This document shows, in pieces, positions 1 through 44,972 of a stretch of 63,482 bases of DNA. The stretch is from a virus. Every line of letters begins with the position of its first letter. Positions within the stretch are counted from its first letter, which is position 1. The notes under the pieces are model-generated. The model saw nothing but the letters and a program-made list of their open reading frames with translations. It made no database searches and was not told the origin of the DNA. Where the stretch lies: IMG/VR virus record IMGVR_UViG_3300000303_000014, positions 1 through 63,482 of that record; one strand, 5' to 3'. Made by a program: the position numbers and the translations under genes.

Positions 1-54
1 CTTGCGCCCAACGAAGATGCACGGATAACGCTCACTGATTACATGATGGCAAAG
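1..54. repeat. Terminal direct repeat, copy 1. It is identical to 63429..63482 and is most simply an assembly overlap of a circular or circularly permuted genome.
   Basis: The first 54 nt (cttgcgcccaacgaag...atgatggcaaag) recur exactly as the last 54 nt. The long + strand reading frame is continuous across the junction. Confidence 0.9.
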
Positions 55-2706
55 CACGGATTGGAGCGAAACCGGGTGATGTCTGAACGTGATGCACAAA
101 AGGATTACGAAGCCATACAAAAAGCGCACCCGCACAGCAAGAAAACCTTGCAGGATTTCATCGATGAGTACCGTCAAAAGGACTATGCAGGGCTTACCGC
201 ACTTACCGGCACGGACAACGTGGCAGACGCCGAGGCGGAGGCGCAAATACTTGTCAACGATTACGAGGCGGCACATGACACCGCCGCTTTATGGAAACGC
301 ACCAAGGACGTTAGCAATGCCATACTTTCCAAACTGTATGAAACCGGCATGATGTCAAAGGACACCTACGACAATGTGCGCTCCATGTATGAGTATTACA
401 TTCCGTTGCGCGGCTTTGATGAAAAGACAAGCGAGGAGGCATACGCCTACCTGAACAGCAAGAACAGCGCATTCAACGCCCCCATCAAGACGGCAAAGGG
501 AAGAAAATCAAAGGCAGACGATCCGTTTGCCTACTTGCAAAACATGGCCGAGAGTGCCATCATGCAAGGAAACCGCAACAAGCTGGTGAAGCAACGATTC
601 TTGAACTTTGTGCTGAATCATCCGAGCGACCTTGCCAGCGTAAGCGACCTGTGGGTGAAGTACGACAAAACGGTGGATGAATGGAAACCGGTGTTCCCGG
701 ATAATATCAACGAGGGTGACACCGCCGAAGAAGTGGAACGAAAGATGCAGGAGTTTGAGGAGCGGATGAAATTGCTTGCCGAACAAGAGCCTGATTTGTA
801 CAAGCATGGGAAAGATGCCGTTAACATCCCTTACCGTGTTGTAGAAAAACGTGATTTGCGCCAGCACCAAGTAGTGGTGAAACGTGGAGGACGTGATTAT
901 GTCATCACGATAAACGGTAATCCGAGAGTTGCACAGGCACTCAACGGACAGACCAACCCTGATAACGACATGTCGGGAGCAATTGGAGCCATACTAAGAG
1001 CCGGAGAGCGGATAAACCGTGAACTGAGTGCCTTGTACACCACACGAAACCCGGATTTCGTCGTGTCGAACTTTATCCGTGATATGTTATATTCCAACAG
1101 CATGGCATGGATAAAGGAAAGTCCGAACTACGCCTTGCGTTACCACCGTAACTTTGCGAAAGTGAACCCTGTAAGGATGAAAATGTTGTTGGCCAAATAC
1201 CGCAACGGCACTCTTGACATGAACAATGAAACGGAACGCATGTTCCACCAATTCATGATGAACGGAGGCGAAACCGGGTATGCCAACATCCGCGACATTG
1301 AGAGACACAAGAACGACATCCGGCGTGAAATCCGCAAGGCTAACGGCAGGATACCCATACGCAAAGCGTGGGATTGGCTGTCAGAGAGGTTTGACGAGTT
1401 TAACCGTGGTGTGGAAAACTGCGCCCGCTTTGCCGCCTTCGTGACTTCACGAGAAATGGGCAGGACAATAGACCGGTCCATCTACGATGCAAAGGAAATC
1501 AGCGTGAATTTCAACAAGAAAGGAAGCGGAGCAAAATTCATGGGCACGACCGGGCAGACAGGATTAGGCAACGCCAGCGCATTCCTATCAGGACTGGGCA
1601 GAAGCGGTTTCGTTTTTTGGAATGCTGCCATACAAGGTACGGCCAACTTCGGACGGCAAGCCAAACGGCATCCGGCCAAGGCATTGACGGGATTGGCCGT
1701 CATGTTCCTGCTTGGCGCGGTTGTAGCTTCTCTCGGATATGGCGACGATGACGAAGATGACAAGAACAGCTATTGGAACCTTCCCGAATATGTGCGCAGG
1801 AGCAACCTGTTGTTCCGTGTCGGAGACCAATGGATAAGCATTCCGCTTCCTGTTGAATACCGTGCGATATACGGACTTGGCGAGTTGATGACCAGTACGC
1901 TCAGCGGAAAAGAGCACTTCACCGATGCAGAAATCGCCAACAAGATAGCCGGACAGATAAGCCAATTGTTACCACTTGACATTTTGGAGGGAGGCGGAGG
2001 ATTCAAGGCACTTATCCCAAGTTCTGTAAAGCCGTTTGCCGAAGCATACGGATATAAGAAAAGCTGGACCGGCCTACCCTTGTATAAAGACACACCTTAT
2101 AATAAGGAAATGCCCGAATGGACGAAAGCCTATAAGAGTGCAAACAAATACCTCGTTGACTTGTCCGAGGCACTCAATGAAGTTTCAGGTGGCGACAAAT
2201 ATACGAAAGGCGCGATTGATATCAATCCTGCAAAGGTGGAATATGTTTTGACCGGCTATTTCGGAGGTGTGGCCAATACGATAGACCGGCTTACCAAGAT
2301 GGGCGAAACCATGATAGGCCAGCGCGAGTATGAGCCACGCAGTTTCCTGATACTGAACCGCATTCTGAAAAACGGTGACGAGCGTACGGAATACAAGGCC
2401 GTCAACAATGAGTATTTCCGATTGAAAGAGGAACACGACAAGTTGAGGACACGGCTTAGGAATTACGAGCGTGACACAGATAACGGCGTGTTTGATTATG
2501 CAGAGAAGATAGACTACCTCTATAACTCGCCTGAATACAGAAGATATGAAATATTCGAGAATTACCGTCCTGACATTGATGACTTGTATAACTTACTTAA
2601 AGAAGCCAATTCCAACGGTGACAAGGAAGCGGTGAAGGACATCGAAGCCCAGTTGAACGAAGTCAAGAAGATGATGATAAAAGACATGAACGATACCCGT
2701 AAATAG
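1..2706 (+). CDS. C-terminal 901 codons of the giant polyvalent virion-associated protein. This is the continuation of the ORF that starts at 49305.
   Basis: The frame is open from position 1 (codon ctt) to TAG at 2704..2706 and is in phase with the frame running off the window end. It contains a hydrophobic segment ALTGLAVMFLLGAVVASLGYG followed by an acidic DDDEDD run. It lies directly upstream of the portal gene. Confidence 0.85.
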   Translation, partial: LAPNEDARITLTDYMMAKHGLERNRVMSERDAQKDYEAIQKAHPHSKKTLQDFIDEYRQKDYAGLTALTGTDNVADAEAEAQILVNDYEAAHDTAALWKRTKDVSNAILSKLYETGMMSKDTYDNVRSMYEYYIPLRGFDEKTSEEAYAYLNSKNSAFNAPIKTAKGRKSKADDPFAYLQNMAESAIMQGNRNKLVKQRFLNFVLNHPSDLASVSDLWVKYDKTVDEWKPVFPDNINEGDTAEEVERKMQEFEERMKLLAEQEPDLYKHGKDAVNIPYRVVEKRDLRQHQVVVKRGGRDYVITINGNPRVAQALNGQTNPDNDMSGAIGAILRAGERINRELSALYTTRNPDFVVSNFIRDMLYSNSMAWIKESPNYALRYHRNFAKVNPVRMKMLLAKYRNGTLDMNNETERMFHQFMMNGGETGYANIRDIERHKNDIRREIRKANGRIPIRKAWDWLSERFDEFNRGVENCARFAAFVTSREMGRTIDRSIYDAKEISVNFNKKGSGAKFMGTTGQTGLGNASAFLSGLGRSGFVFWNAAIQGTANFGRQAKRHPAKALTGLAVMFLLGAVVASLGYGDDDEDDKNSYWNLPEYVRRSNLLFRVGDQWISIPLPVEYRAIYGLGELMTSTLSGKEHFTDAEIANKIAGQISQLLPLDILEGGGGFKALIPSSVKPFAEAYGYKKSWTGLPLYKDTPYNKEMPEWTKAYKSANKYLVDLSEALNEVSGGDKYTKGAIDINPAKVEYVLTGYFGGVANTIDRLTKMGETMIGQREYEPRSFLILNRILKNGDERTEYKAVNNEYFRLKEEHDKLRTRLRNYERDTDNGVFDYAEKIDYLYNSPEYRRYEIFENYRPDIDDLYNLLKEANSNGDKEAVKDIEAQLNEVKKMMIKDMNDTRK

Positions 2707-2787
2707 TTAAACAGCCCTTGATACTTGGAATGGCTACTTTTGCATCAGGCGAGAGCCACTTCCAAGCATCATAAAAAACGAAACGAT

Positions 2788-4761
2788 ATGCAGCATACGA
2801 ATAAGAATACAAGACTGTTCCCGATGAGCCGCATCATGCCGAAACGCGGCGATACGGAGATAGACACCGTGGCGTTCTCGGAAAAGCATTTCGGCGACCG
2901 CCGGGCGTTTGACGTGCTGATGGAAGCGCAGCATTACTGGAACCAAATGGACGATTTCCGTCATGACCGGGAGCGCAACAAGCGGTACACCTACGGCAAG
3001 CAGTGGGATGACGTGATATGCGTGGACGGCAAGAGCATGACGGAGGAGGACTATATCAAGACGCAGGGAAGCGTGCCGTTGAAAAACAATCTCATACGCC
3101 GCCTTGTCCGTAATGTCCTCGGCGTTTACCGCAGCCAAATGAAAGAACCTACTTGTACCGCCCGTGACCGTGACGAACAGAAGTTAGGCGAAACGATGAG
3201 CACCATACTGCAATGCAACATGCAACTCAACCGCATGAACGAGGTAAACGCCCGAAGCATGGAGGAGTTCCTGATTTCAGGTTTCATCGTACACCGGAAA
3301 AGCTACGGTTGGCGTAACAATAAGGAAGATTGCTGGACGGACTATGTGCAACCCAACAATTTTTTCATTGACAACAATATGCGCGATTTCCGAGGATGGG
3401 ACGTCACTTGTCTTGGCGAAGTGCATGACATCAGTTTCGGGCAGTTGTGCGAACAGTTCGCCCATACGCCACAAGACTACCGCAGATTGAAGGACATATA
3501 CAAATGGGCCGCACGAAGAGAGTACATCGCCAGTTATGCCGAACGGTTCGGCTACAGCCGCTTGGAAAACTACGATTTCCTGCTGACCAACGAGCCGGGA
3601 AGATGCAGGGTGATAGAAGTGTGGCGAAAGGAGCAGAAGCCCCGTTACCGTTGCCATGACTACCAAAACGGCGACATCTTCAAGATAGACATTGAAGACT
3701 ACGAGACGGAAGTCGGGCAAGTGAACCGCGAGCGTATGCAGATGGCCAAGTCCGCAGGAATGCCCGATGAGGAAGTTCCGCTGATAAAAGCCACATGGTT
3801 TGTGGATGACTACTGGTACTTCTACTACCTCTCTCCGTTCGGCGACATCCTGAAAGAAGGTGAAACGCCATACGAGCATGGAAGCCACCCCTACGTGTTC
3901 AAGGCGTATCCGTTCATTGACGGCGAGATACATTCGTTCGTATCAGACGTAATAGACCAACAGCGGTACACCAACCGGCTGATTACGCTATACGACTGGA
4001 TTATGCGGGCATCGGCCAAAGGCGTGTTGCTGATGCCTGAAGACTGCCTTCCCGACGGTGTGAGCATGGATGACATAGCCGACGAGTGGGCCCGATTCAA
4101 CGGCATTATTGTGTACAAGCCCTCGACGAGCCGTCAGGTTCCGCAGCAGGTGGCCAATAACTCCACGAACATCGGCATTTCGGAGTTGCTGAACCTGCAA
4201 CTGAAATTCTTCGAGGACATCAGCGGAGTGAACGGCGCACTGCAAGGGAAACCCGGTTTCTCCGGTCAAAGCGCGGCCATGTACAACCAACAGGTGCAGA
4301 ACTCGACAATGGCCTTGCTTGACATGTTAGAGTGTTACAGCCAGTTTACGATAGACGGTGCTTATAAGGACGTGAAGAACATGCAGCAGTTCTACGACAC
4401 CAAGCGAGTGTTCAACATCGCAGGCAAGAGCGGCGCACAGATTGAATACGACCCGAAGAAGATACGCGACGTGGAATTTGACCTTTCCATCACCGAAAGT
4501 ACTTCGACACCTGCTTACCGCCAGCTTGCCAACGACATATTGATGCAGCTGTTCCAGTCACAGGCTATCAATGTGGAGCAACTGTTGGAATTCGGCGATT
4601 TTCCGTTTGCGGACGAACTGTTGCAGAGCATCAAGGCGCAACGTGAACAAATAGAACGTGGCGGCACACCCGACGGCATATCGCCCCAGCTGATGCAACA
4701 GGCGCAGCAAGGCGCAAATATGGATGCCGTGAACAGGCTGCACAACGCTATGGTAGCATAA
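2788..4761 (+). CDS. Portal protein (probable)
   Basis: A 657-aa ORF counted from ATG 2788; the listed 2725 start is TTG. Its size and its position next to the giant head-associated protein and near terL fit a portal. The call rests on position and size only, with no diagnostic motif. Confidence 0.6.
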   Translation: MQHTNKNTRLFPMSRIMPKRGDTEIDTVAFSEKHFGDRRAFDVLMEAQHYWNQMDDFRHDRERNKRYTYGKQWDDVICVDGKSMTEEDYIKTQGSVPLKNNLIRRLVRNVLGVYRSQMKEPTCTARDRDEQKLGETMSTILQCNMQLNRMNEVNARSMEEFLISGFIVHRKSYGWRNNKEDCWTDYVQPNNFFIDNNMRDFRGWDVTCLGEVHDISFGQLCEQFAHTPQDYRRLKDIYKWAARREYIASYAERFGYSRLENYDFLLTNEPGRCRVIEVWRKEQKPRYRCHDYQNGDIFKIDIEDYETEVGQVNRERMQMAKSAGMPDEEVPLIKATWFVDDYWYFYYLSPFGDILKEGETPYEHGSHPYVFKAYPFIDGEIHSFVSDVIDQQRYTNRLITLYDWIMRASAKGVLLMPEDCLPDGVSMDDIADEWARFNGIIVYKPSTSRQVPQQVANNSTNIGISELLNLQLKFFEDISGVNGALQGKPGFSGQSAAMYNQQVQNSTMALLDMLECYSQFTIDGAYKDVKNMQQFYDTKRVFNIAGKSGAQIEYDPKKIRDVEFDLSITESTSTPAYRQLANDILMQLFQSQAINVEQLLEFGDFPFADELLQSIKAQREQIERGGTPDGISPQLMQQAQQGANMDAVNRLHNAMVA

Positions 4762-5799: not shown

Positions 5800-7896
5800 T
5801 TATATTGTTGCGGCTGAAACCGCTTTTTTCTTCCTTGCCCTCGTTGATAACCTATTCCGCATGATGAACTTGGGAAGTTCCATTTCATAGAAACAGACGT
5901 GCAGCCCGATAGCCCGTGTCATGAGCAAGTCATCGTGCTTGCCGACCACCGCGCCGAAAGACCCATTCGGTTTCTTTTCGTAAACAAGATACTCGTCAAG
6001 GCAACGCCGGTCACGCTCGATGTAGGCATTCTCACGGATTACCTTCACGAGCGTGGAAATGACCATCGGCTTGGTGGCCACATTCGTGTGGAAGCCGTAT
6101 TTTGTGGGCAGACCGGCCAAAATGTCCTCCTCAGACTGCTTACGTGCGTAGAGATTCGGATAAACGTTCTTAATCTGATTGAGTATGAACTGCGACTGGT
6201 CACCGTCCACGTCACGCTCCTTGTCGTGTGTTTCAAGTGTATTGCTCTCAATGACCAGCAATGAATTGTCGTAAAAAGCCGCTATCTGTGCCGCCTTCCA
6301 CGCCAGCAAGTCAATGTCGCAGTGGCCGTACCACTGGGCCACAACTACCGGTTTGCCGCCGTCGGCCATGAAAAGGCGGTCGAAAACGACGATTACCGAC
6401 CAGTCCGCCTTGTTGGAACGACCGCCCACATCGACTACCGTCAGGTAACGGTTGAGCACCTTTTCCGCCTCGTCCACCTCCGGAAGTTCCCATACCCAAA
6501 GCATCCCCTGCTTGTCCTCGGAGAAGCGCAGGTTCTTCAACGCATTCTTTCCCTCGTCGGCATCGGCATAGACGTCGCCCACGTAGCGAGGCTCTTTGCA
6601 ACACTTGTCGAAGTCCTCCACCTTGTATTTGTCGAACACCATCGTGCCGGAATGAACAAACGCCTCAATATCGTCTGACGGATATTCGGAAGCCATGGAT
6701 GCATGGTCGTTGTATTTGGCACGTTCAAGAACGTACCAATTGATGGCTTCGAGCGTAGCCCCTTTCTCCCACAACGCCCACAGATAGCGTCCGCTCTCCT
6801 CGCGGGCAGACGATACATTAGCATTCTCCCTATTGTCATACAGGTTGGCTGCAAAGGCTTTTATGTCAACTATCGGCTGTGAGTATTTCTCAATGTCGAA
6901 CCACGACACGAACATCGCCTCAAACTGCGAGTCGCCTTTTTTAGCCGCATCGTATTCACGCTGGAAGAAATTACCTGTGCCGTTGGCCGTACTTTCATAA
7001 ACAATCATCGTGTAAGGCCGGTAGAGGACACCCGAACAGGCGGAACGCACGATGTCCTCCGGCTTCTTGCCCTCCGTGGCTTTCCACAAGCCCACTTCGG
7101 AAAGATGCACAAGGCTGTAGTCACCGCCACGGCAACCGTCCGGCCGTTCCGCCGTGCCAATCTTTATCTTGCAGTTGCGTTGCGGCACACGGTAGATGCT
7201 GCCCGACTTGCCCACGCCCACCAGTTTCGGCTCATTTTCCTTGTAGGCTTCTCCCAGACGGTGGAGCATTTCGACAGGATATGCCTTGATCATGCGGTCG
7301 AACATATCCTTTATTTCGTCAGACCCCGTACCCTGATGTGCGATGATGAGCGAGTTAAGACCCACTTTGTGGATGAGTTGCAGCCACGCCATATAGAGCT
7401 GCGAGGTGGTGGAGCCGCCCCACTGGCGAGCCTTAAGCAAGACTATGCGTATGGGCTTCTCCGCCTTGCGTAATCTTTCGAGCCGTGCGACAAACCTACG
7501 CTGCGGACGTGTCAGCCGGAAAAGCACATCTTCGCCGCCGTCCTTATTCTTGATGTAAACCTGCGTGGCCGCCCAAAACGGAAAATCGTAACGGAAGCGC
7601 AATCGGACAAACTGCTCGATGACTTTCAGGCGATCTGCTTCGTTGTATTCAACCTCCATGCAATCCGTCAGGAACGCACGAACAGAGCCGCACTTGACAA
7701 GCTGCGCCACGAGAGGCACTTTCATCATTTCGACCGGCACCCATTGCATTTGAATGGGAAAATCGTCGATTACGATTTTCTTCCGCTCCCCCACCGAGCC
7801 ATATCCGGTAACAGGGTCGAACTTGGCGTAGATTTCCGCATTGCGCCGTTCGTTTTCTTTGATAATCTCCTTTATGGCCTTTTCCCTTACCGTCAT
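5800..7896 (-). CDS. terL: Terminase large subunit
   Basis: The ATG at 7896..7894 overlaps the TGA of the upstream gene in an ATGA arrangement. It carries the ATPase P-loop-like LLKARQWGGSTTSQ. The size is about 698 aa, with an acidic nuclease-like C-terminal half (VVDVGGRSNKADWSV). Confidence 0.8.
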   Translation of the reverse strand: MTVREKAIKEIIKENERRNAEIYAKFDPVTGYGSVGERKKIVIDDFPIQMQWVPVEMMKVPLVAQLVKCGSVRAFLTDCMEVEYNEADRLKVIEQFVRLRFRYDFPFWAATQVYIKNKDGGEDVLFRLTRPQRRFVARLERLRKAEKPIRIVLLKARQWGGSTTSQLYMAWLQLIHKVGLNSLIIAHQGTGSDEIKDMFDRMIKAYPVEMLHRLGEAYKENEPKLVGVGKSGSIYRVPQRNCKIKIGTAERPDGCRGGDYSLVHLSEVGLWKATEGKKPEDIVRSACSGVLYRPYTMIVYESTANGTGNFFQREYDAAKKGDSQFEAMFVSWFDIEKYSQPIVDIKAFAANLYDNRENANVSSAREESGRYLWALWEKGATLEAINWYVLERAKYNDHASMASEYPSDDIEAFVHSGTMVFDKYKVEDFDKCCKEPRYVGDVYADADEGKNALKNLRFSEDKQGMLWVWELPEVDEAEKVLNRYLTVVDVGGRSNKADWSVIVVFDRLFMADGGKPVVVAQWYGHCDIDLLAWKAAQIAAFYDNSLLVIESNTLETHDKERDVDGDQSQFILNQIKNVYPNLYARKQSEEDILAGLPTKYGFHTNVATKPMVISTLVKVIRENAYIERDRRCLDEYLVYEKKPNGSFGAVVGKHDDLLMTRAIGLHVCFYEMELPKFIMRNRLSTRARKKKAVSAATI

Positions 7897-8402
7897 CGCT
7901 TTATGTGTATTGGTTTGTTGAGCAAGGCGACCACGAAGCCGCAGAGATAACAGTACAGGTGCAACCAAGCATTGGTATTGGGCATGAAAAATCCGATGCC
8001 GATGTAGAAGAGCATCCAGCACTGGTAATACCGCTTACGCAGCACCTCGAACGAGATAGAGCCGAACAGCACGTACACCACACCCGAAAGTCCGACCGTA
8101 GGATTGTCAAAAGGCAGGAATCCCCCCAACGTATCAACAGGCACGGTCACGGCTAATAGATAAGCCACGAGCATACGCCTGAAAGAAACATCGTAGGAAA
8201 ACACCACGGAGAGCAAGCACCAAGCATTGAGTGAGGCATGGAAAACGCCCGAATGGAAGAATGGGTATAAAAACCTTCCGGCCAAAGGGCAATGCGCATA
8301 GATGCCGACCGAATGCCAGCCGGCAATGTGGAAGAACGACAAGACCGTCACCAACAGCGCAATTACAACAGCCGAAGCCTTTTCAACTTTTCCTGCACCC
8401 AT
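7893..8402 (-). CDS. Rhomboid-family intramembrane serine protease (minimal six-TM core)
   Basis: FFHSGVFHASLNAW matches the Hx4Hx3N motif. VGLSGVVYVLFG matches the GxSG catalytic Ser motif and resembles GlpG GGLSGVVYAL. NAWLHLYCYLCGFVVA supplies the catalytic His in the last TM. The protein is hydrophobic throughout. Confidence 0.85.
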   Translation of the reverse strand: MGAGKVEKASAVVIALLVTVLSFFHIAGWHSVGIYAHCPLAGRFLYPFFHSGVFHASLNAWCLLSVVFSYDVSFRRMLVAYLLAVTVPVDTLGGFLPFDNPTVGLSGVVYVLFGSISFEVLRKRYYQCWMLFYIGIGFFMPNTNAWLHLYCYLCGFVVALLNKPIHIKR

Positions 8403-8794
8403 TTCTTACGAGCCTTACAAACCATGATTTTCGCACTTCCCGGAGTGAGATAGAATTTAGGCGCGGGCTGTGCCACGACGATGCTGCAACACGTCCTGAT
8501 TGTGAGTTCAGGCCGTTTCTTCCGCAAGGCCAACACACGCCTTAAAATTTCCTCGAACATTTCACGTTTCAAAGGGCGCATATCTTTCAGTGGCACACCT
8601 CGCAACATGGCGTATATAACCTTAGTTGCCCGTATGTCACTCACCCAAAAACGCTGGGATTGCATATTGACGATAGCGGCATACACATCGGGCATACGGA
8701 TGTAAGCGCAGGACGAAATGTATTCGTCATACGCCCGCATAAGGTCTTGCATACGCTCCTCGGCGTATTCCATCATCGCTCCGTGGTGCTTCAT
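8363..8794 (-). CDS. Hypothetical protein, first gene of the packaging operon. A terminase small subunit role is possible on position only.
   Basis: A 143-aa ORF with an ATG start that overlaps the rhomboid gene by 40 nt. No motif recognised. Confidence 0.55.
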   Translation of the reverse strand: MKHHGAMMEYAEERMQDLMRAYDEYISSCAYIRMPDVYAAIVNMQSQRFWVSDIRATKVIYAMLRGVPLKDMRPLKREMFEEILRRVLALRKKRPELTIRTCCSIVVAQPAPKFYLTPGSAKIMVCKARKKWVQEKLKRLRLL

Positions 8795-8814
8795 AATACA
8801 GTTTATCTATGTTT

Positions 8815-8822
8815 CAAAATTA
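8815..8822 (-). promoter_or_regulatory. Candidate Bacteroidetes -7 promoter box (TAATTTTG on the - strand) for the packaging operon
   Basis: It matches the TAnnTTTG consensus about 20 nt upstream of the ATG at 8794. Confidence 0.35.
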
Positions 8823-8869
8823 GCGATTGGAGCGTAAAAAGTTATACCTCGCCAATTGGTTTGTTAGCC

Positions 8870-8877
8870 TAAATTTG
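8870..8877 (+). promoter_or_regulatory. Candidate Bacteroidetes -7 promoter box (TAAATTTG) for the head and tail operon
   Basis: It matches TAnnTTTG about 38 nt upstream of the ATG at 8916. No convincing -33 TTTG was seen. Confidence 0.35.
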
Positions 8878-8915
8878 CAATGTGACAAATCGCAAAACAA
8901 TTAAAAATCAAGAAT

Positions 8916-9704
8916 ATGCCTGATAAGACAACAGTTAAGAGCAACCGCGAACAATATGCGGAACGGTTGAAGGCCAAATATCCCGACCGTGAATTTGCCG
9001 ACGATGAAGCATTATGGGGGCAAGCCAATGAAGATTACGACGGTTACGACAAGGAACTGGCCGGATATAAGGAACGCGAGAAAGCGTTTTCCGACCTGTT
9101 TACGAGCGACCCCCGGAGTGCCGCTTTTCTGACGAACTGGCGCAAAGGCGGCAATCCTGCCGTTGAACTTGTGCGCATGTTCGGCGACGATTTCGTGGAG
9201 GAGCTGAAAGACCCGGCAAAGCAGGAAGAACTGGCCAAGGCCAGCAAAGACTATGCGGAGCGCGTAGCCAAGGAAAAAGAGTTCGACGAGCTGTATCAAA
9301 AGAACATATCCGAAACGCTGAACACCCTTGAAACCATGCAGCAGGAAGACGGTGTGAGCGATGACGAGATAGACCGTGCCATGGAGTTCCTCGTAGGCAT
9401 CGTAAAGGACGGCATTGTGGGAAAGTTTTCTCCTGAAAGCATACAAATGGCATTCCGTGCCATCAACCATGATTCGGACGTGGCCGTAGCCGCAAGAGAG
9501 GGCGAGTTGAAAGGGCGCAACACCCGTATTGAAGAAAAACTGCGCAAGAAGCAACGCAGCGACGGCACCGCCAACCTTGACGGAAAGAACGGAGGCGGCG
9601 GAAAGGCAAGGGATATGCCCGACTTGGGCGCATTGAACCGTTACGATGACGGAGGGCAGACCATTTGGGAGCGCGGAGGAGAAAAGCGCAGACCGGCACG
9701 GTAA
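8916..9704 (+). CDS. Scaffolding-like protein
   Basis: A 262-aa, highly charged and helical protein (E/K/D-rich) immediately upstream of the capsid gene. Confidence 0.45.
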   Translation: MPDKTTVKSNREQYAERLKAKYPDREFADDEALWGQANEDYDGYDKELAGYKEREKAFSDLFTSDPRSAAFLTNWRKGGNPAVELVRMFGDDFVEELKDPAKQEELAKASKDYAERVAKEKEFDELYQKNISETLNTLETMQQEDGVSDDEIDRAMEFLVGIVKDGIVGKFSPESIQMAFRAINHDSDVAVAAREGELKGRNTRIEEKLRKKQRSDGTANLDGKNGGGGKARDMPDLGALNRYDDGGQTIWERGGEKRRPAR

Positions 9705-9739
9705 GTTAAGAATTAAAAGTTAAGAGTGAAGAATGAAGA
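9705..9739 (+). repeat. Five tandem heptamers (gttaaga attaaaa gttaaga gtgaaga atgaaga) starting right after the stop codon
   Basis: Read directly from the sequence. The same element follows the TAA stops at 23797 and 24340. Confidence 0.7.
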
Positions 9740-9770
9740 ATTTATAAACAACAATTAAAACCCCAAAAAG

Positions 9771-11246
9771 ATGAAGACGTTAAAGAAAAGTACAAGTTTT
9801 CTGTATCACGTAATGCTGACGCTGTTGGCTATCGTGATTGGCGCAGCGAGCGGTGTTACGATGGCCGCAGCGAGTGACTTGCCCGACGCAGGAAAGACCA
9901 ACGCCGGTGCAGACGCTGACGGAGGCAATGACCCTACCGCCGGTATCGCCACCGAAACGCAAGGAAGGACGGACAGCGACCCCGATTTTTACATGGCGGA
10001 CGTGGACAAGCGCATTGTCAAAATCCGCCCTATGGCAAGTCCAATCGACCAAATCAGCCGCTATGCGAAATCGACCAGTTGCGACAGCTTCGAAGTGAAG
10101 TATTACAGCGTTGGCACGAGGGAAATCAAGTGTATGACAAGCGATGCCGTCACCGCCATGTCGAGCGGAGCAAGTACGAAGCTGCCTGTAAGCGACCCCA
10201 ACATGTTCACGTTGGACGATACTATCCGCGTAGTAGGTGTTAAGGGCGTGACCAATCCCGACACCGGCCAGGCATACGAAAAGGACGACCCCAACACGCC
10301 CGACCTTGTGCTGTGCGTATGCGGAAAGGATGCCACGACCAACATGCCCACCGTATATGCCGTGAACGGCGCGATGGACTCGTCGAGCAAGCAGCCGATA
10401 TGGGTTCCTGCCATTCCGAAGAGCACCGTATTGGTGCGCATGGGCAAAGCCTGCGGCGAGCTTGACGTGCAGACAGGACGTTTCAACAACATCCCGATGC
10501 CCGAAACGCAGTACTGCCAGAACTTCATGATTCAGATTGAGCAGTCCACGTTCGACAAAATTGCCAAGAAAGAAGTGAATTGGAGTTTCTCGGACATTGA
10601 GGAGGACGGAATCTATGACATGCGCCTCGCGATGGAGAACACCTACCTGTTCGGCGTGAAGAACCGCATCAAGCACGTTACTAAAGACGGCATGATGACA
10701 TGGTTCACCGGAGGTTTGTGGTGGATGGCCGGAAAGGACATCGAAGTTGGAGAATGGGATGCGGAGAAAGAATGCGCCGTTATCTCTGATGACAACCTCG
10801 TAGATATTACGAAAGACCTGTTTGTCGGCACGGGCATAGGCAACAAGCGCAAGATTCTGTTCTGCGGTTCTGAAATGCTCTCGGCTTTCTCGAAAATCAA
10901 AAGCGAGAAGTTCCGCCTGAAAGACACGGTGGAAGTATGGAACCTGAAGTTCAAGAGTTGGGACACCGACTTCGGCGAGGTGCTGACCATCCACCACGAA
11001 CTGTTTGACATGAACGGCATGAGCGACTGCGGCTTTGCGATGGATCCCGAATACCTGTCGAAAAAGACCCATGTAAGCTGGGCGCGCAACGTGCTTGACT
11101 TGCAGAAGGCCGGAATCCGCCGCACGGATGCCGTAGTAATTCAGGAAGTGAGCTGCCTGTACCTGCGCTACGCAAAGGCACACGCCCGAATGAGACTGGC
11201 AAAAGCACCCACTACGGACGGAGGCAGCAGTGATTCCGGAGATTAA
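9771..11246 (+). CDS. Major capsid protein (probable), with an N-terminal hydrophobic extension
   Basis: A 491-aa ORF placed after the scaffold-like gene. DVDKRIVKIRPMASPIDQISRYAK followed by EVKYYSV resembles the N-terminal signature of SU10-type and HK97-fold capsid proteins. Residues 10..35 form a TM-like helix rich in small residues. Confidence 0.6.
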   Translation: MKTLKKSTSFLYHVMLTLLAIVIGAASGVTMAAASDLPDAGKTNAGADADGGNDPTAGIATETQGRTDSDPDFYMADVDKRIVKIRPMASPIDQISRYAKSTSCDSFEVKYYSVGTREIKCMTSDAVTAMSSGASTKLPVSDPNMFTLDDTIRVVGVKGVTNPDTGQAYEKDDPNTPDLVLCVCGKDATTNMPTVYAVNGAMDSSSKQPIWVPAIPKSTVLVRMGKACGELDVQTGRFNNIPMPETQYCQNFMIQIEQSTFDKIAKKEVNWSFSDIEEDGIYDMRLAMENTYLFGVKNRIKHVTKDGMMTWFTGGLWWMAGKDIEVGEWDAEKECAVISDDNLVDITKDLFVGTGIGNKRKILFCGSEMLSAFSKIKSEKFRLKDTVEVWNLKFKSWDTDFGEVLTIHHELFDMNGMSDCGFAMDPEYLSKKTHVSWARNVLDLQKAGIRRTDAVVIQEVSCLYLRYAKAHARMRLAKAPTTDGGSSDSGD

Positions 11247-17981: not shown

Positions 17982-19646
17982 ATGACTAATCGATTTATCA
18001 ACGTCCAAAAAAACAAGATTATGGCAAAAGGATTGAAAATTCAACTTCCTTCGGCAGTCACAGACGCAGAGGGATTGCACAAGCTCGAACATTATTACGG
18101 TATCGAGTTCACGCGCGGAGCGAGCAACGGCGGCGGCGACAACGGCTACCACAAAATGATTGGCGATGAAACGCTATTGAAGGAAATGCGTTTCCATAAC
18201 CAAATGAAAATTGTAACCGTCGGCAAGGACGCAGCCATTAAGAGTACGCTCAACCAAGTGAACTGGAACAAAATGGACAGCGGCGATGCTTCTGTCATTG
18301 ACGGCAGCGATGACACGGATGTAATCCAAGCACACACCAAGAACGTGTACGCCATCATAGGCGGAACAAACCCGACCTACGAGCGTTACATCGTGTCAGA
18401 CCAGCCTTTCACCTATGACGGGGACGAAGCAAAAGAGTATCTTGCCTACGGTGAAACTCCCGACTACGTTACATTGCTGAACGGTGTAGTGCGTTCAATT
18501 CGCAATGATGACGTGGACGGAACCCACGGAGCAGGAAACGGAACGAACCACAGCAGCGCAGGATATGGCACGGCAGAAGCCGGCGGCTACCCAAAAACAC
18601 AGTTAAGCCGTTTTGCGTTCGAGCAATATGCAAGAGCAAAAAACACCGACCCGAACAGCAACCTTCCGTATATGAACATCTGTAATCAGGATGTCGAATT
18701 GACACAAGCATTCATGTTCATCGAGTTCAGGACGAAACAGCTCAACGGCATACTCGGTCACGGCATGTCAACCGTCTCCATACCCACGAAAGAAACTTGG
18801 GGAAAAGTGAGCGGCTTCCGTATCACTACCGACAACGGTGCTACATATAAGTATGTAGGACTTGGCACGAACCTCTACCTCAACAGTTCAACAACAGGCA
18901 CTACCATGTGGGCAATCCTCAACGGCTCATGCCCGCTGCTCAAGATGTTCGAGGCACAATTGGCCGTATCAAACGGTGACACGCTTGAAGCCGTGAACAA
19001 CTCGGACGGCGAACCGGTACAAGGCTTGTCTGACGGCGTAATGACAGGTATTTGGACAAAGACGTTCTCATTCAAGGTGAACGCTTCGCTCACATCCGGC
19101 GGCGCTCCTGAACTGCTCAGCGTGGATGCTGTATTGCGTGTTCCCGTATGGCGCGGCAGAACACGCCTGTGGGGAAACTGCTCACAATGGTACAGTGGTT
19201 ATGAACTCCTGCGTTACCTTGACGAAGGTGGTCTGACCCATCACAAGATTTACCGCTCGCCCAGCGTGGAAGCATTGGTAAAAGACAGCGATGTTACAGA
19301 CAAGACGGAAGAAGGACAGTTTGAATTCGAGAAAAAATACAACTATCTCGGAGAATTGCCTACCATCACCGTAGATGCCGGATATTGGGCAAAAGAGACC
19401 CATAAGGACGGCGACATATCCACTCCATTGGTAAAGACCGGCGGAGGCGCACTCAGCACCTACGAGAGTGCATTCTTCTGGGCGCAGAAACACCCCACAG
19501 CAGGTACGTACTCCCGTCGTGGTACTCTCTTTGGCGGCTATGCGAACGAGAGTCTTGCCGCCCTCCGTTTCGCGACTTGCTTCAATTCGCCCTCGCTTGC
19601 GTTCACGAACCTCGGTTCCGGCTTCCGTGTGGAGCTTTCCGACTGA
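17982..19646 (+). CDS. DGR target protein, a probable receptor-binding tail protein with a C-terminal variable region
   Basis: A 554-aa ORF; an alternative ATG lies at 18021. The last 40 or so codons are the VR, reading RGTLFGGYANESLAALRFATCFNSPSLAFTNLGSGFRV, a pattern typical of C-type-lectin-fold DGR targets. Confidence 0.8.
   Translation: MTNRFINVQKNKIMAKGLKIQLPSAVTDAEGLHKLEHYYGIEFTRGASNGGGDNGYHKMIGDETLLKEMRFHNQMKIVTVGKDAAIKSTLNQVNWNKMDSGDASVIDGSDDTDVIQAHTKNVYAIIGGTNPTYERYIVSDQPFTYDGDEAKEYLAYGETPDYVTLLNGVVRSIRNDDVDGTHGAGNGTNHSSAGYGTAEAGGYPKTQLSRFAFEQYARAKNTDPNSNLPYMNICNQDVELTQAFMFIEFRTKQLNGILGHGMSTVSIPTKETWGKVSGFRITTDNGATYKYVGLGTNLYLNSSTTGTTMWAILNGSCPLLKMFEAQLAVSNGDTLEAVNNSDGEPVQGLSDGVMTGIWTKTFSFKVNASLTSGGAPELLSVDAVLRVPVWRGRTRLWGNCSQWYSGYELLRYLDEGGLTHHKIYRSPSVEALVKDSDVTDKTEEGQFEFEKKYNYLGELPTITVDAGYWAKETHKDGDISTPLVKTGGGALSTYESAFFWAQKHPTAGTYSRRGTLFGGYANESLAALRFATCFNSPSLAFTNLGSGFRVELSD
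19517..19631 (+). repeat. DGR variable repeat (VR)
   Basis: A 115-bp repeat with 100 matches to the TR. All 15 mismatches lie opposite TR adenines. Confidence 0.9.
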
Positions 19647-19682
19647 CGAACGGCGAAACCCAAGACGAAAACCGAAAACCTA

Positions 19683-19704: not shown

Positions 19705-19793
19705 TCTTAAACCGAAAACGCAACCCAAGCCTAAACCGAAAGCCGGACGTGGCTGTAGGGAGGACAACGATTTCAAAATTAAAATTAGAGAAT

Positions 19794-20528: not shown

Positions 20529-21827
20529 ATGAAAAGATTGAAGAATGTTTGGAGTAAGATATGTGACGAATCACTTTTGAGGGATGCCATCTTGAACGCC
20601 TCGAAAGGCAAGATGAAATACCGCAAGGTAAGAAGGAAGGTGAAGCGAGTGGACATATACGCCAAAAAGCTATCGGACATGCTTGCAAGCGGTAAATTCA
20701 CTCCATCGCCTTACAAGGTGGACAAGATAAAGACAGAATACGGCAAGGAAAGGGAGATATTCAAGTTGCCGTTCTACCCGGACAGATGCGTACAACACGG
20801 CATAAGCATAGTAATGCGTCCGAGATGGGACAAAAGCCTTACGGCGGACACATACGCCTGCCTGAAAGACAGAGGAATAAACTGCAAGAAACGAAGATTC
20901 AACCTGAACCGCAAGGTAAGAAGTGCCATACGCAGCTATAAGCATAGGAAAGTGTATGTACTGAAGATAGACGTAAAGAAATGTTATCCAAGCGTTGACA
21001 ACGCCATACTTGCCGAGCGATACAGAAGGTATTGTGCCGACCCGTCGATGTTACGCCTTATGGATGACATCAACCATAACGGCAAAGGACTTCCGATAGG
21101 CAATTTCCTCTCGCAACTGTGGATAAACATCTACTTGGCACCATTGGACAGGTTTGTGAAAGAAGTGCTTAAAGCAAGACACTACTTCCGCTATATGGAT
21201 GACATAGTGATACTCTGCGAGGACAAGGCGACACTGCACGAATGGATGTGGAGAATACAAAATTTCCTTTGGTATGTGTTGCACTTGGAACTTAACTCTA
21301 AACGTCAGATATTCCCTTTGGGGTACAACCTGACGGAAAGAGGGCTGGACTTTGCCGGTTATGTGTTCCGTCATGACAGCACGATGGTAAGAAAACGCAT
21401 CAAGCAAGCCTTTGCACGGAGAAGGCACAAGCCAAAGAGCATACCAAGCTATATGGGTATCCTGCAACATTGCGATTCGAAAAACTTAGTAAACAAAATC
21501 GTAAAAAGAGACAATGACATGGAATTATCAGAACTGTTGAAAAGAAAGATTGAACGTCCGTTCGAGGGCGACAACATAAAGATAGAGGCCATTGTTGACC
21601 GGCCGATTGAAGTGTTGGACTTCCAAGTGCGGCCCAGCGAGAAGAAGCCGAACACCGACTACCTGAAGATGCAGATACGCTTCGAGGGAAAGAAGCGTTT
21701 TGTAGGCGGCGGTTACCAATTCCTGTGTGAAGTGTTGAAGCAGATAGACAAGAGCAACCTTCCGTTCAACACCATTATCCGCAACAAGCGCGGGTATTAC
21801 TTTGAGGGTACAATAGACGAGGAATAA
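20529..21827 (+). CDS. DGR-type reverse transcriptase with a C-terminal extension
   Basis: It carries LPIGNFLSQLWINIYL (the DGR-specific [ILV]GxxxSQ motif), the catalytic motif YMDDIVIL, and the fingers motif FYPDRCVQHGI. At 432 aa it has roughly 110 aa beyond the thumb region. Confidence 0.9.
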   Translation: MKRLKNVWSKICDESLLRDAILNASKGKMKYRKVRRKVKRVDIYAKKLSDMLASGKFTPSPYKVDKIKTEYGKEREIFKLPFYPDRCVQHGISIVMRPRWDKSLTADTYACLKDRGINCKKRRFNLNRKVRSAIRSYKHRKVYVLKIDVKKCYPSVDNAILAERYRRYCADPSMLRLMDDINHNGKGLPIGNFLSQLWINIYLAPLDRFVKEVLKARHYFRYMDDIVILCEDKATLHEWMWRIQNFLWYVLHLELNSKRQIFPLGYNLTERGLDFAGYVFRHDSTMVRKRIKQAFARRRHKPKSIPSYMGILQHCDSKNLVNKIVKRDNDMELSELLKRKIERPFEGDNIKIEAIVDRPIEVLDFQVRPSEKKPNTDYLKMQIRFEGKKRFVGGGYQFLCEVLKQIDKSNLPFNTIIRNKRGYYFEGTIDEE

Positions 21828-21831: not shown

Positions 21832-22389
21832 ATGTTGTTTGACCATGATTCTGTAATGGAAACTGGCACGAGAGCCGTAGGCATATCCCTGTTCGGCAGC
21901 GAGCTGGTAAGCGTGATGACGGACGCACGCTGGATGCTGCTTGCCATCACCATTTGCGTAATGGCGGACTTCCGCTACGGTTGGGGAGAGAGCAGCAAGC
22001 GATACAAGCGGGCTAAGGAGAAAGGCGATAAAATCGTCATGGCGCAGTATAAATGGCGCACGTCAAGGGCAATGCGCCGGACGGTGAACAAGCTCATTGA
22101 TTACTTTATGTGGGTAACGTTGGGCATGTTCTTCGGCTGGGCGATACTGAAACCGTTGGGTGTGGATCACGTTATGGGCGGAGTCGTCGCCACGGCTGTT
22201 GCCATAGCGTGTGAGGCAAAATCTTTCTGCGGCCACTTCTTCTACCTGCACGGAATAAAGATAGAAGAAAAGTCGGTGAAAGGATTTCTACGTGCTTTTG
22301 TAGTAGCCTTTGCCAAGCGAAAGAACGAGGACTTGGGCGAGGCTTTGGAAGAGGGATTTAACAGTAACGATAAAACAGAAACGAAATGA
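21832..22389 (+). CDS. Holin (three predicted TM segments)
   Basis: A 185-aa ORF with hydrophobic segments WMLLAITICVMADF, FMWVTLGMFFGWAIL and GGVVATAVAIACEA and a charged C-terminus. It overlaps the amidase gene in an ATGA arrangement. Confidence 0.55.
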   Translation: MLFDHDSVMETGTRAVGISLFGSELVSVMTDARWMLLAITICVMADFRYGWGESSKRYKRAKEKGDKIVMAQYKWRTSRAMRRTVNKLIDYFMWVTLGMFFGWAILKPLGVDHVMGGVVATAVAIACEAKSFCGHFFYLHGIKIEEKSVKGFLRAFVVAFAKRKNEDLGEALEEGFNSNDKTETK

Positions 22390-22829
22390 GAAGTATCAAA
22401 AGGATTTTCGTGCATTGCACGGCAGGGAGCCAGCGTCAGACGGTGGCAGACCTTCAGGCAGAGTTCAAGCGTAAGGGATGGAAACACCCCGGCTATCACT
22501 ATGTGGTTCAGTCTGACGGGAAAATCACCCAGTTGCTCGGCGAACAATTCGTGAGCAACGGCGTGAAAGGCTACAATTCGACGGCCATCAATGTGGCCTA
22601 TATGGGTGGCATTGACGCAGAGGGAAAGGCCACGGACAACCGCACGGACGCGCAGAAAGAGAGTCTGCGGAAGCTGCTGAAACTGCTGAAAAGCCGTTAC
22701 CCCAAAGCGGAGATAATGGGACACAGGGACATCAGTCCGGACACGAACGGCAACGGAAAAGTGGACAGTTGGGAAAGGATTAAGGAGTGCCCCTGCTTTG
22801 ACGCTAAGGAAGAGTATAAAGAGATATGA
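22386..22829 (+). CDS. N-acetylmuramoyl-L-alanine amidase endolysin (T7 lysozyme / PGRP family)
   Basis: IFVHCTAG, GYHYVVQSDG, GYNSTAINVAYMGG, MGHRD and ECPCFD align with the conserved blocks of T7 lysozyme. Confidence 0.85.
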   Translation: MRSIKRIFVHCTAGSQRQTVADLQAEFKRKGWKHPGYHYVVQSDGKITQLLGEQFVSNGVKGYNSTAINVAYMGGIDAEGKATDNRTDAQKESLRKLLKLLKSRYPKAEIMGHRDISPDTNGNGKVDSWERIKECPCFDAKEEYKEI

Positions 22830-23353
22830 GAGCACTGGGAAGAATGGGGCAAATGAGCCTGATCACGTTGGCTGTTATGGCGGCTATCCTATTGGCCGGA
22901 TGCAGGAGCGTGAAGTATGTGCCGGTGTACATACAGAACGACAGCACGGAAACCCACGTAAAGACTGTGACGGAATACGTTAAGGACACGTTGCCCGTCA
23001 AGATACCTGCACAGACGGCAGAACGGACAACCGCCGACACAACGAGCCATCTTGAAAACGACTATGCAGAAAGCTACGCACGTATCAATCCGGACGGAAC
23101 GCTGTACCACAGCCTGATGACGAAGCCACAAGACTTGGAGGTGGAGTATGACAAGCCCATACAGCGTACGGACAGCATCGTCAACAGGAAAGGCACGACC
23201 ACCGTTGTACGCACCGTGGAAGTGGAACGCGAACTGACGTGGATAGAACAGGGGCAGATATACGGCTTCCGCATATTGGCCGTACTTATCACCGTATGGC
23301 TGATATGGAGGTACAGGAGCAAGATAACAAACCTAATACGCAAACTGATATGA
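22826..23353 (+). CDS. Unimolecular spanin-like lipoprotein
   Basis: It has a lipobox (LLAGC) after a signal peptide and a single C-terminal TM (FRILAVLITVWLIWRY). It lies directly after the endolysin with an ATGA overlap. Confidence 0.55.
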   Translation: MRALGRMGQMSLITLAVMAAILLAGCRSVKYVPVYIQNDSTETHVKTVTEYVKDTLPVKIPAQTAERTTADTTSHLENDYAESYARINPDGTLYHSLMTKPQDLEVEYDKPIQRTDSIVNRKGTTTVVRTVEVERELTWIEQGQIYGFRILAVLITVWLIWRYRSKITNLIRKLI

Positions 23354-23820: not shown

Positions 23821-23829
23821 TTTACGACT

Positions 23830-42986: not shown

Positions 42987-43181
42987 TTAATGGCTTTCGC
43001 GCAATTCCCTATAGGATATGCGGAGCAACACCCATGAAAGGTAGATGAACACAAAACTCACGAGATAGCCGAAAACTGAGGTGATGTGGCCCAATACGAT
43101 GTGGCCGACCACACTTGCTACTACGCATAGAAATATCAGCGCGGCAATAATCAGTTGAACGAACGTAAATGTCTTATCCAT
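42987..43181 (-). CDS. Small membrane protein (two TM segments)
   Basis: A 64-aa ORF with the hydrophobic segments FVQLIIAALIFLCVVASVVGHIVL and VFGYLVSFVFIYLSWVLL. Confidence 0.55.
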   Translation of the reverse strand: MDKTFTFVQLIIAALIFLCVVASVVGHIVLGHITSVFGYLVSFVFIYLSWVLLRISYRELRESH

Positions 43182-43534: not shown

Positions 43535-43912
43535 ATGAGAATAGAGCGGGTTAATATAGGTTTGGCAATCGAACAAAAAATAAACGAGCTTGGATTGTCA
43601 AAGTCTGAATTTGGCAGAAAGATTGGTATTCCTCAACAAAATGTGAATAGGATACTTGAGAAACCAAATATAGACACAGAAAAGTTAATCACGATAAGTG
43701 AAGCACTTGGATATAACTTCTTTGCGGATTATTCAGGTGACCATAATGCTGTTGCCAATGGTGACGGTTCTGTAGCCGTTAGTGGTAACAACAATAGTAA
43801 CGTAGTAGCTGGTGGGGAAACGGCTTTGCTTCAGGAGCGGATAAAGCATTTGGAGGAGTTGCTTGCTGAGAAGGAGAGGCTGATACAGGTGTTGATGGAG
43901 GGGAGGAAATGA
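43535..43912 (+). CDS. XRE-family HTH transcriptional regulator (CI/Cro-like repressor) with a C-terminal coiled coil
   Basis: The HTH reads LGLSKSEFGRKIGIPQQNVNRILEKPN. The C-terminal zipper reads LLQERIKHLEELLAEKERLIQVL. The ATG is at 43535; the listed 43529 start is TTG. Confidence 0.75.
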   Translation: MRIERVNIGLAIEQKINELGLSKSEFGRKIGIPQQNVNRILEKPNIDTEKLITISEALGYNFFADYSGDHNAVANGDGSVAVSGNNNSNVVAGGETALLQERIKHLEELLAEKERLIQVLMEGRK

Positions 43913-44277
43913 AGGATTCAAGAACGTATTATTTGTTCTTGGGAATACTTGTTTTTGTGGGGATTGTTTGCTCGTATGCACATACGATATTCCCTGTAAT
44001 GGACGTTGATGAATACTTCGTTGATGAAAACAACGTCATCCATAATACACTATGTCCATACAAAGGTGTGCCATGGTTTACGAATAAACAAAGCAAATAT
44101 GAATTTATAAAAAACGGAGATTGGGAATTTTGCAAAGAGTGCTTTTCGGAAGACGAAATAAGCAAATTGATGATGCTCCATGAATGCAATATTGAACTAT
44201 ACATAGATAATCTATTGCATAAAGGTGCATCAACAGAATATATTGATAGCAAACTTGAAGAAATGAAACTTGAATGA
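43909..44277 (+). CDS. Membrane-anchored hypothetical protein (moron)
   Basis: It has an N-terminal TM (YYLFLGILVFVGIVCSY), sits in AT-rich sequence, and has ATGA overlaps on both sides. Confidence 0.6.
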   Translation: MKDSRTYYLFLGILVFVGIVCSYAHTIFPVMDVDEYFVDENNVIHNTLCPYKGVPWFTNKQSKYEFIKNGDWEFCKECFSEDEISKLMMLHECNIELYIDNLLHKGASTEYIDSKLEEMKLE

Positions 44278-44972
44278 TGAGAAAGATAGTAAATCTTTTA
44301 CCAATAGCCATAAGCATTATACTTGCATCATGCTCGAATGATGATACAGATGTGTATGATGAATTGTTGTCTAATACGACATGGCACCAGTTCTACGTCA
44401 TACCTGATTCGGAAGTAGTAGAGGAAACCTATACGATACCCGAAGAGATACTATCCCGGCTGGAATCAACGAAACGTACCGAGGAGGCAAAAGATACGAT
44501 AGGCGACATTCAGCAGACCAACGAATATGTACTGACTTTTGGAAGTGATGAAACGTGCGAGTTGAACGACATACATCATTTCGGGGGTACTTACCAAATT
44601 GAGACCTACGAAGAAGAAATAACTTACTATCCCAACCAAACATACCGAGAGGATGTCGGCGAAGGATATACAACGGAAATCATCGTGTTGAACGACAGTA
44701 TTACATTGCGAAGCCTGAAAGGTGAAGAGCTGGTAAGGCAGAACACGATGTTCTTAGGAAAGAATAACGAGATAAGGAGTAAAGGCCGGACGATAGACGT
44801 ATCAGAACCATCTGATTACGATGTAGAAGATAAGGCCGAAGCGTATCACATGACGTACACGAGGAATGGCAATCGCTTAGAACTTGCTGGAGATAAAAAC
44901 CTTTCAGGAGTTATAAGCGAGGACTTTAGCGAGATAGATTTTGAGGAGATAGGAAGTTTCGGAAGGAAATAA
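44274..44972 (+). CDS. Lipoprotein (moron; a candidate superinfection-exclusion or surface protein)
   Basis: It has a signal peptide with a lipobox (IILASC) and sits in AT-rich sequence. Confidence 0.65.
   Translation: MMRKIVNLLPIAISIILASCSNDDTDVYDELLSNTTWHQFYVIPDSEVVEETYTIPEEILSRLESTKRTEEAKDTIGDIQQTNEYVLTFGSDETCELNDIHHFGGTYQIETYEEEITYYPNQTYREDVGEGYTTEIIVLNDSITLRSLKGEELVRQNTMFLGKNNEIRSKGRTIDVSEPSDYDVEDKAEAYHMTYTRNGNRLELAGDKNLSGVISEDFSEIDFEEIGSFGRK

Follow-up and report, generated by a model that had tools for sequence, protein, structure and literature searches.

A conserved rhomboid-family protease in the head and packaging genes of gut Bacteroidales phages, with the major capsid protein as a candidate substrate

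Why would a phage carry an intramembrane protease between the genes that package its DNA? The question is raised by the virus record IMGVR_UViG_3300000303_000014 from IMG/VR, a stretch of 63,482 nucleotides analyzed here at its full length and referred to as the window, in which an open reading frame (ORF) of 169 aa on the minus strand (7893..8402, ATG start) encodes a rhomboid-family intramembrane serine protease with a minimal six-helix core. A preliminary description of this DNA had recognized three rhomboid hallmarks in the proper order, and these are found as H50-SGVF-H55-ASL-N59, G104-L-S106-G, and H148-LYCYLC-G155. The profile search agrees with that reading, as Pfam Rhomboid (PF01694) matches with 30.4 bits against a gathering cut-off of 22.6 (E 5.2e-7), with protein residues 44-160 aligned to positions 8-138 of the 143 in the profile. 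In addition, 396 database clusters match the protein at E<=1e-3, with a precomputed PF01694 assignment on most of the 120 homologues listed. No PHROG family matched the protein, and searches of the PDB by sequence, using the single protein or profiles of 34 and 35 sequences, returned no GlpG match; the link to GlpG came only through a fold search and hhalign because the family is too diverged for detection at the sequence level. Judged from sequence and gene order, this is almost certainly a bona fide, conserved, and catalytically intact phage rhomboid located within late head and packaging genes. The identification itself is not new, since the family is already labelled rhomboid in public records.

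The predicted structure places the catalytic residues where a rhomboid protease would need them. An AlphaFold2 model built with 34 homologues (predicted local distance difference test, pLDDT, 83; predicted template modelling score, pTM, 0.83) contains six long helices and short loop helices, and the top 35 PDB matches found by Foldseek are all GlpG from E. coli or H. influenzae (TM 0.58-0.70, probability 1.0), with iRhom1 and Der1 following as weaker matches. Catalytic Ser106 and His148 lie inside predicted transmembrane helices 4 and 6 of this GlpG-like fold, while the H50xxxxH55xxxN59 motif is on helix 2 and Arg43 is in loop 1. Profile alignment to GlpG by hhalign (with a provisional GlpG sequence as input) pairs S106 with S201, H148 with H254, H50 with H145, H55 with H150, N59 with N154, C151 with G257, and G155 with G261. 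The likeness to GlpG (MEROPS S54, PF01694) thus includes the six-helix core at a TM of about 0.7, HxxxxHxxxN on helix 2, the loop 1 Arg, a GLSGVVY block on helix 4 identical over 7 residues (against the same provisional GlpG sequence), and the helix 6 His with small residues at +3 and +7. The phage protein differs in being only ~18% identical, in having no cytoplasmic N-domain, in a loop 1 shortened to ~20 residues in which the Trp of the WR motif is absent from the clade, and in being fixed in a head/packaging operon. In the window protein Arg43 is preceded by Gly, and the cultured relative BF1-TP2 reads W-T-R in this loop, which is much shorter than that of GlpG. The helix 6 packing motif HxxGxxxG appears as H148-xx-C151-xxx-G155, with Cys in place of the first Gly.

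Across 121 family sequences (53-99% identity), S106, H148, H50, H55, G104, C151, and G155 are invariant, N59 is present in 120, and R43 in 119; the same catalytic residues persist in subfamilies too diverged to be linked by BLAST or tblastn. This conservation bears on whether the protein is a protease at all. The weaker fold matches to iRhom1 and Der1 would suit a catalytically dead rhomboid-fold protein of the derlin or iRhom kind, serving as a membrane chaperone or dislocase for the packaging motor or for an anchor on the capsid protein (described below). Pseudoproteases lack the dyad, yet Ser106, His148, and the oxyanion His/His/Asn set show next to no variation among the subfamilies compared here, making a non-proteolytic role very improbable. 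A manual positive-inside count gives a net charge of +7 for the N-terminus, loops 2-3 and 4-5, and the C-terminus, and of about -1 for loops 1, 3, and 5, which corresponds to the canonical orientation. We infer that this is an inner-membrane protein whose N- and C-termini are cytoplasmic and whose active site opens toward the periplasmic leaflet. Neither the rhomboid nor its upstream neighbor matched any PADLOC defence model, and membership of a known defence system is rejected for the rhomboid on that search.

The gene is locked into its surroundings by overlaps on both sides, as the preliminary description had stated and as the letters themselves read. Plus-strand positions 7893-7896 are TCAT, or ATGA on the minus strand, where the rhomboid stop TGA (7895..7893) shares bases with the ATG (7896..7894) of the gene for the large terminase subunit, terL. 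At its other end, the rhomboid start is overlapped by 40 nt by the upstream ORF at 8363..8794 on the minus strand, a conserved 143-aa partner gene that we call up143. In practically all related phages and prophages that were checked, all from Bacteroidales, the gene is intact and in the same place. In all 41 loci compared (IMG/VR and GenBank), the order is kept: the scaffold and capsid genes run one way, up143, the rhomboid, terL, and a 118-aa gene run the other, and the portal gene further along is oriented like the capsid gene. Identities across these loci are 51-76% for the rhomboid, 62-86% for TerL, and 66-95% for the capsid protein. Of the first 122 loci, tblastn detected the rhomboid in all except two, namely L111, which lacks the flank, and BF1-TP2, whose rhomboid is too diverged for this search. 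It was also detected in 31/31 loci from Bacteroidales genomes, with terL immediately downstream in 30, and it sits directly upstream of terL even in clades with only ~35% capsid identity. A megablast comparison of the locus with 50,697 phage records gave no match.

A second lineage, whose TerL is 35% identical and which also has a P22 portal, carries an up143-like gene and a rhomboid that are adjacent or overlapping in 72 of its 73 loci. There, the pair adjoins a GH19 endolysin module and is ~3 kb from terL, on the opposite strand. Since the pair is kept away from terL in this lineage, the conserved unit is up143 plus the rhomboid, and the fusion to terL is specific to the lineage of the window. 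On these genome comparisons, the rhomboid (155-180 aa) belongs to the fixed core genes of a large group of gut Bacteroidales phages that are temperate and combine a P22-type portal with an SU10-type capsid.

The only cultured relatives are the Bacteroides phages BS-TP4, BKO1-TP3, and BF1-TP2, in which gp8, gp50, and gp59, respectively, are true orthologues in the same slot. Their GenBank records say rhomboid, in one case (BKO1-TP3) wrongly 'glycoside hydrolase', and the label also occurs in the public annotation 'MAG TPA: Rhomboid family [Caudoviricetes sp.]'. Other annotation errors in this group include large terminases recorded as 'tail spike protein' and small ORFs recorded as 'YajC' or 'PHD finger protein 19', in L001 / L002 (PQ571277, PQ571269) and L122 (PQ571263). 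The paper describing the three cultured phages does not mention the gene, and our literature search on phage rhomboid function found nothing relevant. To our knowledge, substrates have been identified for very few bacterial rhomboids, and there is no study of a rhomboid from a phage. BS-TP4 has been detected in 31% of 930 viromes (PMC12694917).

Conservation of this kind also bears on whether the rhomboid is a host-derived passenger, a lysogenic-conversion gene (moron) with no role in the virion. Rhomboid genes do occur among the accessory genes of other phages, such as the 'rhomboid membrane protein' listed for the Stenotrophomonas phages DLP3/DLP5 (PMC7326821). The phage of the window is, moreover, a temperate phage of Bacteroidales, as judged from a copy of the rhomboid, 99% identical, on a 258-kb contig of an Alloprevotella metagenome-assembled genome (MAG) and from relatives integrated in Bacteroides congonensis, Phocaeicola massiliensis DSM 17679, and many other Bacteroidales genomes; the window also contains an integrase-like ORF at 45323..46804, labelled from its N-terminal sequence alone. 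Morons, however, are patchy, lie at module borders with signals of their own, and turn over fast, whereas this gene overlaps both of its neighbors with no intergenic space, and the cassette is kept across 35% TerL identity. The DLP3/DLP5 rhomboid belongs to a different family, given that the window protein matches no PHROG. A passenger gene is therefore a distinctly unlikely explanation.

A candidate substrate of the rhomboid comes from the head module itself. A hydrophobic-helix scan of all ORFs in the window identified the major capsid protein (SU10_MCP family, 491 aa; 9771..11246, plus strand) as the sole head-module protein with a predicted membrane helix. The Pfam match (PF17236, 95.7 bits) begins only at residue 67, leaving an N-terminal extension (residues 1-75; 9771..9995, plus strand) outside the Pfam capsid core as the candidate rhomboid substrate. 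The protein starts MKTLKKSTS-FLYHVMLTLLAIVIG-AASGVTMAAAS-DLPDAGKT, followed by a linker rich in Gly, Asp, and Thr, and residues 14-32 have a hydropathy of 2.16. This anchor-like N-terminus is kept in relatives including BF1-TP2, whose capsid protein is 50% identical, with one exception discussed below (L320), and the capsid protein of the second lineage begins MKK..QFIFKMILMLLAVVTGGGV[ML]A[MV]AD and continues into a ~100-aa linker. A search with the mature capsid domain against 1.84 billion representative proteins found 604 homologues, and among the 150 best of these (28-98% identity; P0121-P0270), most of the full-length ones have such an N-terminal helix and a minority begin just before the core. 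Loci L123-L291 likewise encode SU10-type (HK97-fold) capsids that begin with MKK, a ~20-aa hydrophobic helix, a small-residue motif, and a low-complexity linker. The literature search on membrane-anchored HK97-fold capsid proteins found nothing relevant. The membrane-anchor-like capsid N-terminus co-occurring with a rhomboid, the core-gene status of the rhomboid, and the up143-rhomboid cassette are new here.

The mechanism that we favor would have the rhomboid produced late, along with the proteins for head and packaging, at the same time as a capsid protein bearing an N-terminal Lys-rich, hydrophobic, membrane-anchor-like segment that ends in G-A-S-x-G-V-x-M-A and is followed by a flexible linker. 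The rhomboid would cut in or next to the helix-destabilizing Gly/Ser kink of this anchor, either freeing the capsid domain or clearing the anchor, so that head assembly and packaging could proceed in the cytoplasm. It would then be a dedicated enzyme for one cognate signal, as rhombosortase is. We put the probability that the substrate is the N-terminal anchor of the phage's own major capsid protein at roughly 0.35, which makes it the single likeliest mechanism. The fuller version, in which the capsid protein is a membrane-anchored precursor released by the rhomboid and the commonness of such anchors in the SU10-like family implies membrane-templated head assembly in many Bacteroidota phages, is slightly less probable.

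Two further observations support a link to the capsid: the lysis cassette is 14 kb away in another module, and the nearest NCBIfam model is rhombosortase (TIGR03902), although its 25.7 bits are far below the cut-off of 84, so that the phage protein is not a member. Rhombosortase processes GlyGly-CTERM signals, and the resemblance lies in the small core and in the pairing proposed here of a dedicated enzyme with a signal made of a Gly motif, a hydrophobic helix, and a basic cluster. The difference is that the signal proposed here is N-terminal and mirror-imaged, running from basic cluster to helix to Gly/Ser motif, rather than C-terminal. A second precedent is AarA of Providencia stuartii, which matures TatA by trimming its N-terminal, membrane-embedded end. 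AarA has no sequence relationship to the phage rhomboid beyond the family, and while TatA, with its N-terminus outside, is shortened by 8 residues, the capsid N-terminus is predicted to be inside and ~30+ residues would have to be removed. Were the proposal correct, there would also be a parallel with the prohead proteases (HK97 gp4, T4 gp21), in which a protease of the head module removes an N-terminal capsid propeptide; those, however, are soluble serine proteases of the herpesvirus type that are packaged in the prohead, with a fold and chemistry unrelated to those of an intramembrane protease. As for T4, its proheads do assemble on the inner membrane, although via the portal and not via an anchored capsid protein. 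The preliminary description had remarked that no conventional prohead protease is recognizable in this genome, and this stands for what was scanned, with no such family among nine head-region ORFs searched against Pfam (which gave only P22_portal and SU10_MCP) or three searched against PHROGs. A head module that has a P22-type portal and a separate scaffold-like protein ordinarily lacks such a protease, and the absence on its own implies no such role for the rhomboid.

Does the rhomboid then track the type of anchor on the capsid protein? About 400 loci were collected and scored for a rhomboid by an iterated hidden Markov model (HMM) together with a generic multi-helix scan, and for the capsid N-terminus as well. 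The comparison set was limited to loci in which terL is present as well and consisted of 100 distinct capsid N-termini, 66 rhomboid-bearing and 34 rhomboid-less, with relationships derived from identity matrices and the unweighted pair group method with arithmetic mean (UPGMA). All 100 have a hydrophobic N-terminus. In the rhomboid-bearing set, this is a single uncharged span of 18-35 aa (median 26) that usually ends G-A-S-x-G-V-x-M-A and passes into an acidic residue and the linker, whereas in the rhomboid-less set it is mostly 33-46 aa long (median 34.5), or consists of two hydrophobic stretches split by one acidic residue, a two-part arrangement that looks like a hairpin. The uncharged-span measure was used because a regular expression for G-x-x-G...M-A separated the sets poorly (38/66 rhomboid-bearing vs 4/34 rhomboid-less). 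Linker length differs weakly, at 50 residues in rhomboid-bearing vs 37 in rhomboid-less capsids (p=0.016, uncorrected for phylogeny). The anchor-less capsid representatives from the 1.84-billion-protein library (P0175, P0176, P0181, and others) have no close relatives in IMG/VR, and the loci nearest to them are anchored and rhomboid-less.

Several of these results, and the predicted orientation of the anchor, weigh against the capsid protein as the substrate. Among the 34 rhomboid-less relatives, which span ~25 TerL clusters, no rhomboid-like ORF was found within +-10 kb, and the existence of anchored capsids without a rhomboid means that a phage rhomboid is not needed for handling such anchors. 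Conversely, L320 (ONJX01000008.1, from a rumen Prevotellaceae MAG; locus 6797-10432) combines up143, the rhomboid, and terL with a 543-aa capsid protein that lacks the N-terminal helix. No second locus of this kind was found, and the capsid gene of L320 could be a replacement. Judged by TerL identity, the loci with a rhomboid form nearly one clade, with rhomboid-less L129/L132 at its edge and rhomboid-bearing L210 outside it, so that the number of independent events behind the correlation between rhomboid and anchor is perhaps 2-3. The comparison supports, though weakly, an association of the rhomboid with one type of anchor. The topology poses a further difficulty. A manual charge count puts the Lys-rich N-terminus of the anchor in the cytoplasm, while known rhomboid substrates have their N-terminus outside, giving a chain direction opposite to that of the capsid anchor, and a type II anchor would place the capsid domain in the periplasm. 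Because heads must assemble in the cytoplasm, the anchor would need to be re-entrant or hairpin-like, or to bind in some unconventional manner, with the Gly/Ser kink at the depth of the active site, an arrangement we only infer. Finally, the capsid segment also resembles a conventional Sec signal peptide, whose A-x-A site could be cleaved by host signal peptidase.

That last point leads to a different division of labor, in which host signal peptidase I cuts the capsid protein at the conserved M-A-x-A and the rhomboid serves late in infection as a signal-peptide peptidase or quality-control enzyme that clears jammed precursors or the highly abundant anchor peptides left behind. All relatives show the n/h/c arrangement of a Sec signal and have small residues at -3/-1 (MAAA/S, MADA/S), and such a scheme would account both for the chain direction and for the rhomboid-less relatives, which would tolerate the peptides. 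It would nevertheless require an export-type insertion that begins to translocate the capsid domain, and bacterial rhomboids are not known as signal-peptide peptidases; we consider it unlikely.

Two of the findings that count against the capsid protein also speak for an active rhomboid with another target, be it a host inner-membrane protein, the phage holin-like protein, the lipoprotein encoded next to the endolysin, or a hydrophobic segment of the giant virion protein. The outcome could be host takeover, superinfection exclusion, or envelope remodelling, or else tuned lysis timing or entry and exit. Characterized bacterial rhomboids act on TatA, MgtE, and orphan respiratory subunits, the rhomboid of the second lineage adjoins a GH19 endolysin module, L320 retains the rhomboid in spite of its anchor-less capsid, and anchored capsids persist in relatives that have no rhomboid. 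The window itself offers further membrane proteins. In the lysis cassette (21832-23353, plus strand), these are the holin-like protein (185 aa, multi-helix; 21832..22389, plus strand), which has no family match, and a 175-aa lipoprotein with the lipobox LAGC (22826..23353, plus strand), which may be a spanin; the amidase endolysin of this cassette matches phrog_822 (E 8e-49). The hydrophobic-helix scan adds predicted membrane proteins at 42987..43181 (two-helix), 43909..44277, and 44274..44972. On the other side, the rhomboid is 14 kb from the lysis cassette and translationally coupled into the packaging/head operon, a position on which a lysis-cassette role is rejected for this lineage, and no alternative substrate co-varied with it in the data gathered, in which the conservation of the other membrane proteins across rhomboid-bearing lineages was not examined. 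We regard another target as a serious possibility, only just behind the capsid protein in probability, though one that falls short of even odds. Directly after the lysis cassette are three tandem paralogues of 170-186 aa (23239-24890, plus strand) that match phrog_35482 / phrog_19255, families with no assigned function.

The neighbors of the rhomboid place it firmly among head and packaging genes, although not in every respect as first described. The gene directly downstream, terL (5800..7896, minus strand), encodes 698 aa from the ATG at 7896 and matches phrog_2 'terminase large subunit' (E 1.8e-17) as well as three other terminase PHROGs. Upstream, up143 is co-oriented with terL, with the rhomboid in between, and in the rhomboid-less relatives L130 and L132 it overlaps terL directly. 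It belongs to phrog_27246 (E 1e-69), which has no assigned function, and it has no Pfam, NCBIfam, PADLOC, or annotated PHROG match. Its AlphaFold2 model (pLDDT 90) is described as all-helical, with two tandem helix-helix-strand-helix units that each carry a P-x-F-[WY]-[VL]-[ST] strand, and comparison of the model with the PDB and BFVD gave no match with E<0.8. The preliminary description had placed the rhomboid between a putative small terminase subunit gene and terL; the placement and the overlaps hold, but profile, structure prediction, and two fold libraries gave no confirmation of the small terminase, which is a positional label only. On its predicted structure, up143 might represent a new fold or else a small terminase of a new type.

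On the far side of up143, a divergent intergenic region of 121 nt (8795..8915) separates the up143-rhomboid-terL operon from the scaffold-capsid operon. It contains TAnnTTTG, which we take to be the Bacteroides -7 promoter element, once in each direction, at 8822..8815 on the minus strand and 8870..8877 on the plus strand. The head operon opens with a highly charged, scaffold-like protein of 262 aa (8916..9704, plus strand), a label based on position and composition only; the ORF is syntenic in all relatives and matches phrog_22323 (E 2e-135), to which no function is assigned, and has no Pfam match. The P22-type portal is encoded at 2725..4761 (Pfam P22_portal). Between the portal and the genes on the terL side is a 154-aa accessory gene (4788-5252, plus strand) with weak PHROG matches to 'phosphoheptose isomerase' and to polynucleotide-kinase-like families; it is patchy among relatives, being present for example in L005-L016 but missing in BS-TP4 and BKO1-TP3.

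The first ~53 nt of the window recur at its end when the window is compared with itself, and the window is on this account the circular assembly of a complete genome of ~63.4 kb. A single open frame of ~5,600 codons crosses the circular junction, from 49305..63482 into 1..2706 on the plus strand. The counterparts of this giant gene in BKO1-TP3 and BS-TP4 are 16.2-16.7 kb long, one of them annotated 'DarB-like antirestriction', and the minus-strand ORFs with TTG starts at 50.9-58.3 kb are shadows of the giant frame. The window also contains a diversity-generating retroelement (DGR; 17982-21827, plus strand), with a reverse transcriptase at 20529..21827 (phrog_1423, E 5e-90) and a 115-nt template repeat (20204-20318) that is 87% identical to the variable repeat (19517-19631) at the 3′ end of a 554-aa ORF (17982..19646).

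What this locus offers is a compact rhomboid fixed in the late structural operon of highly prevalent human-gut phages, with three cultured relatives that make the hypothesis testable and a single abundant, co-encoded candidate substrate that makes the assignment of enzyme to substrate directly testable. Should the capsid link prove wrong, a major group of gut prophages would still be left with a late function that is conserved but unexplained. Should it prove true, it would be the first case of capsid maturation in tailed phages that depends on an intramembrane protease, and for the first time a viral substrate would be defined for a rhomboid. Head assembly would gain a new means of control, and the signal-like N-termini of a large capsid family, which automated annotation has ignored, would be explained.

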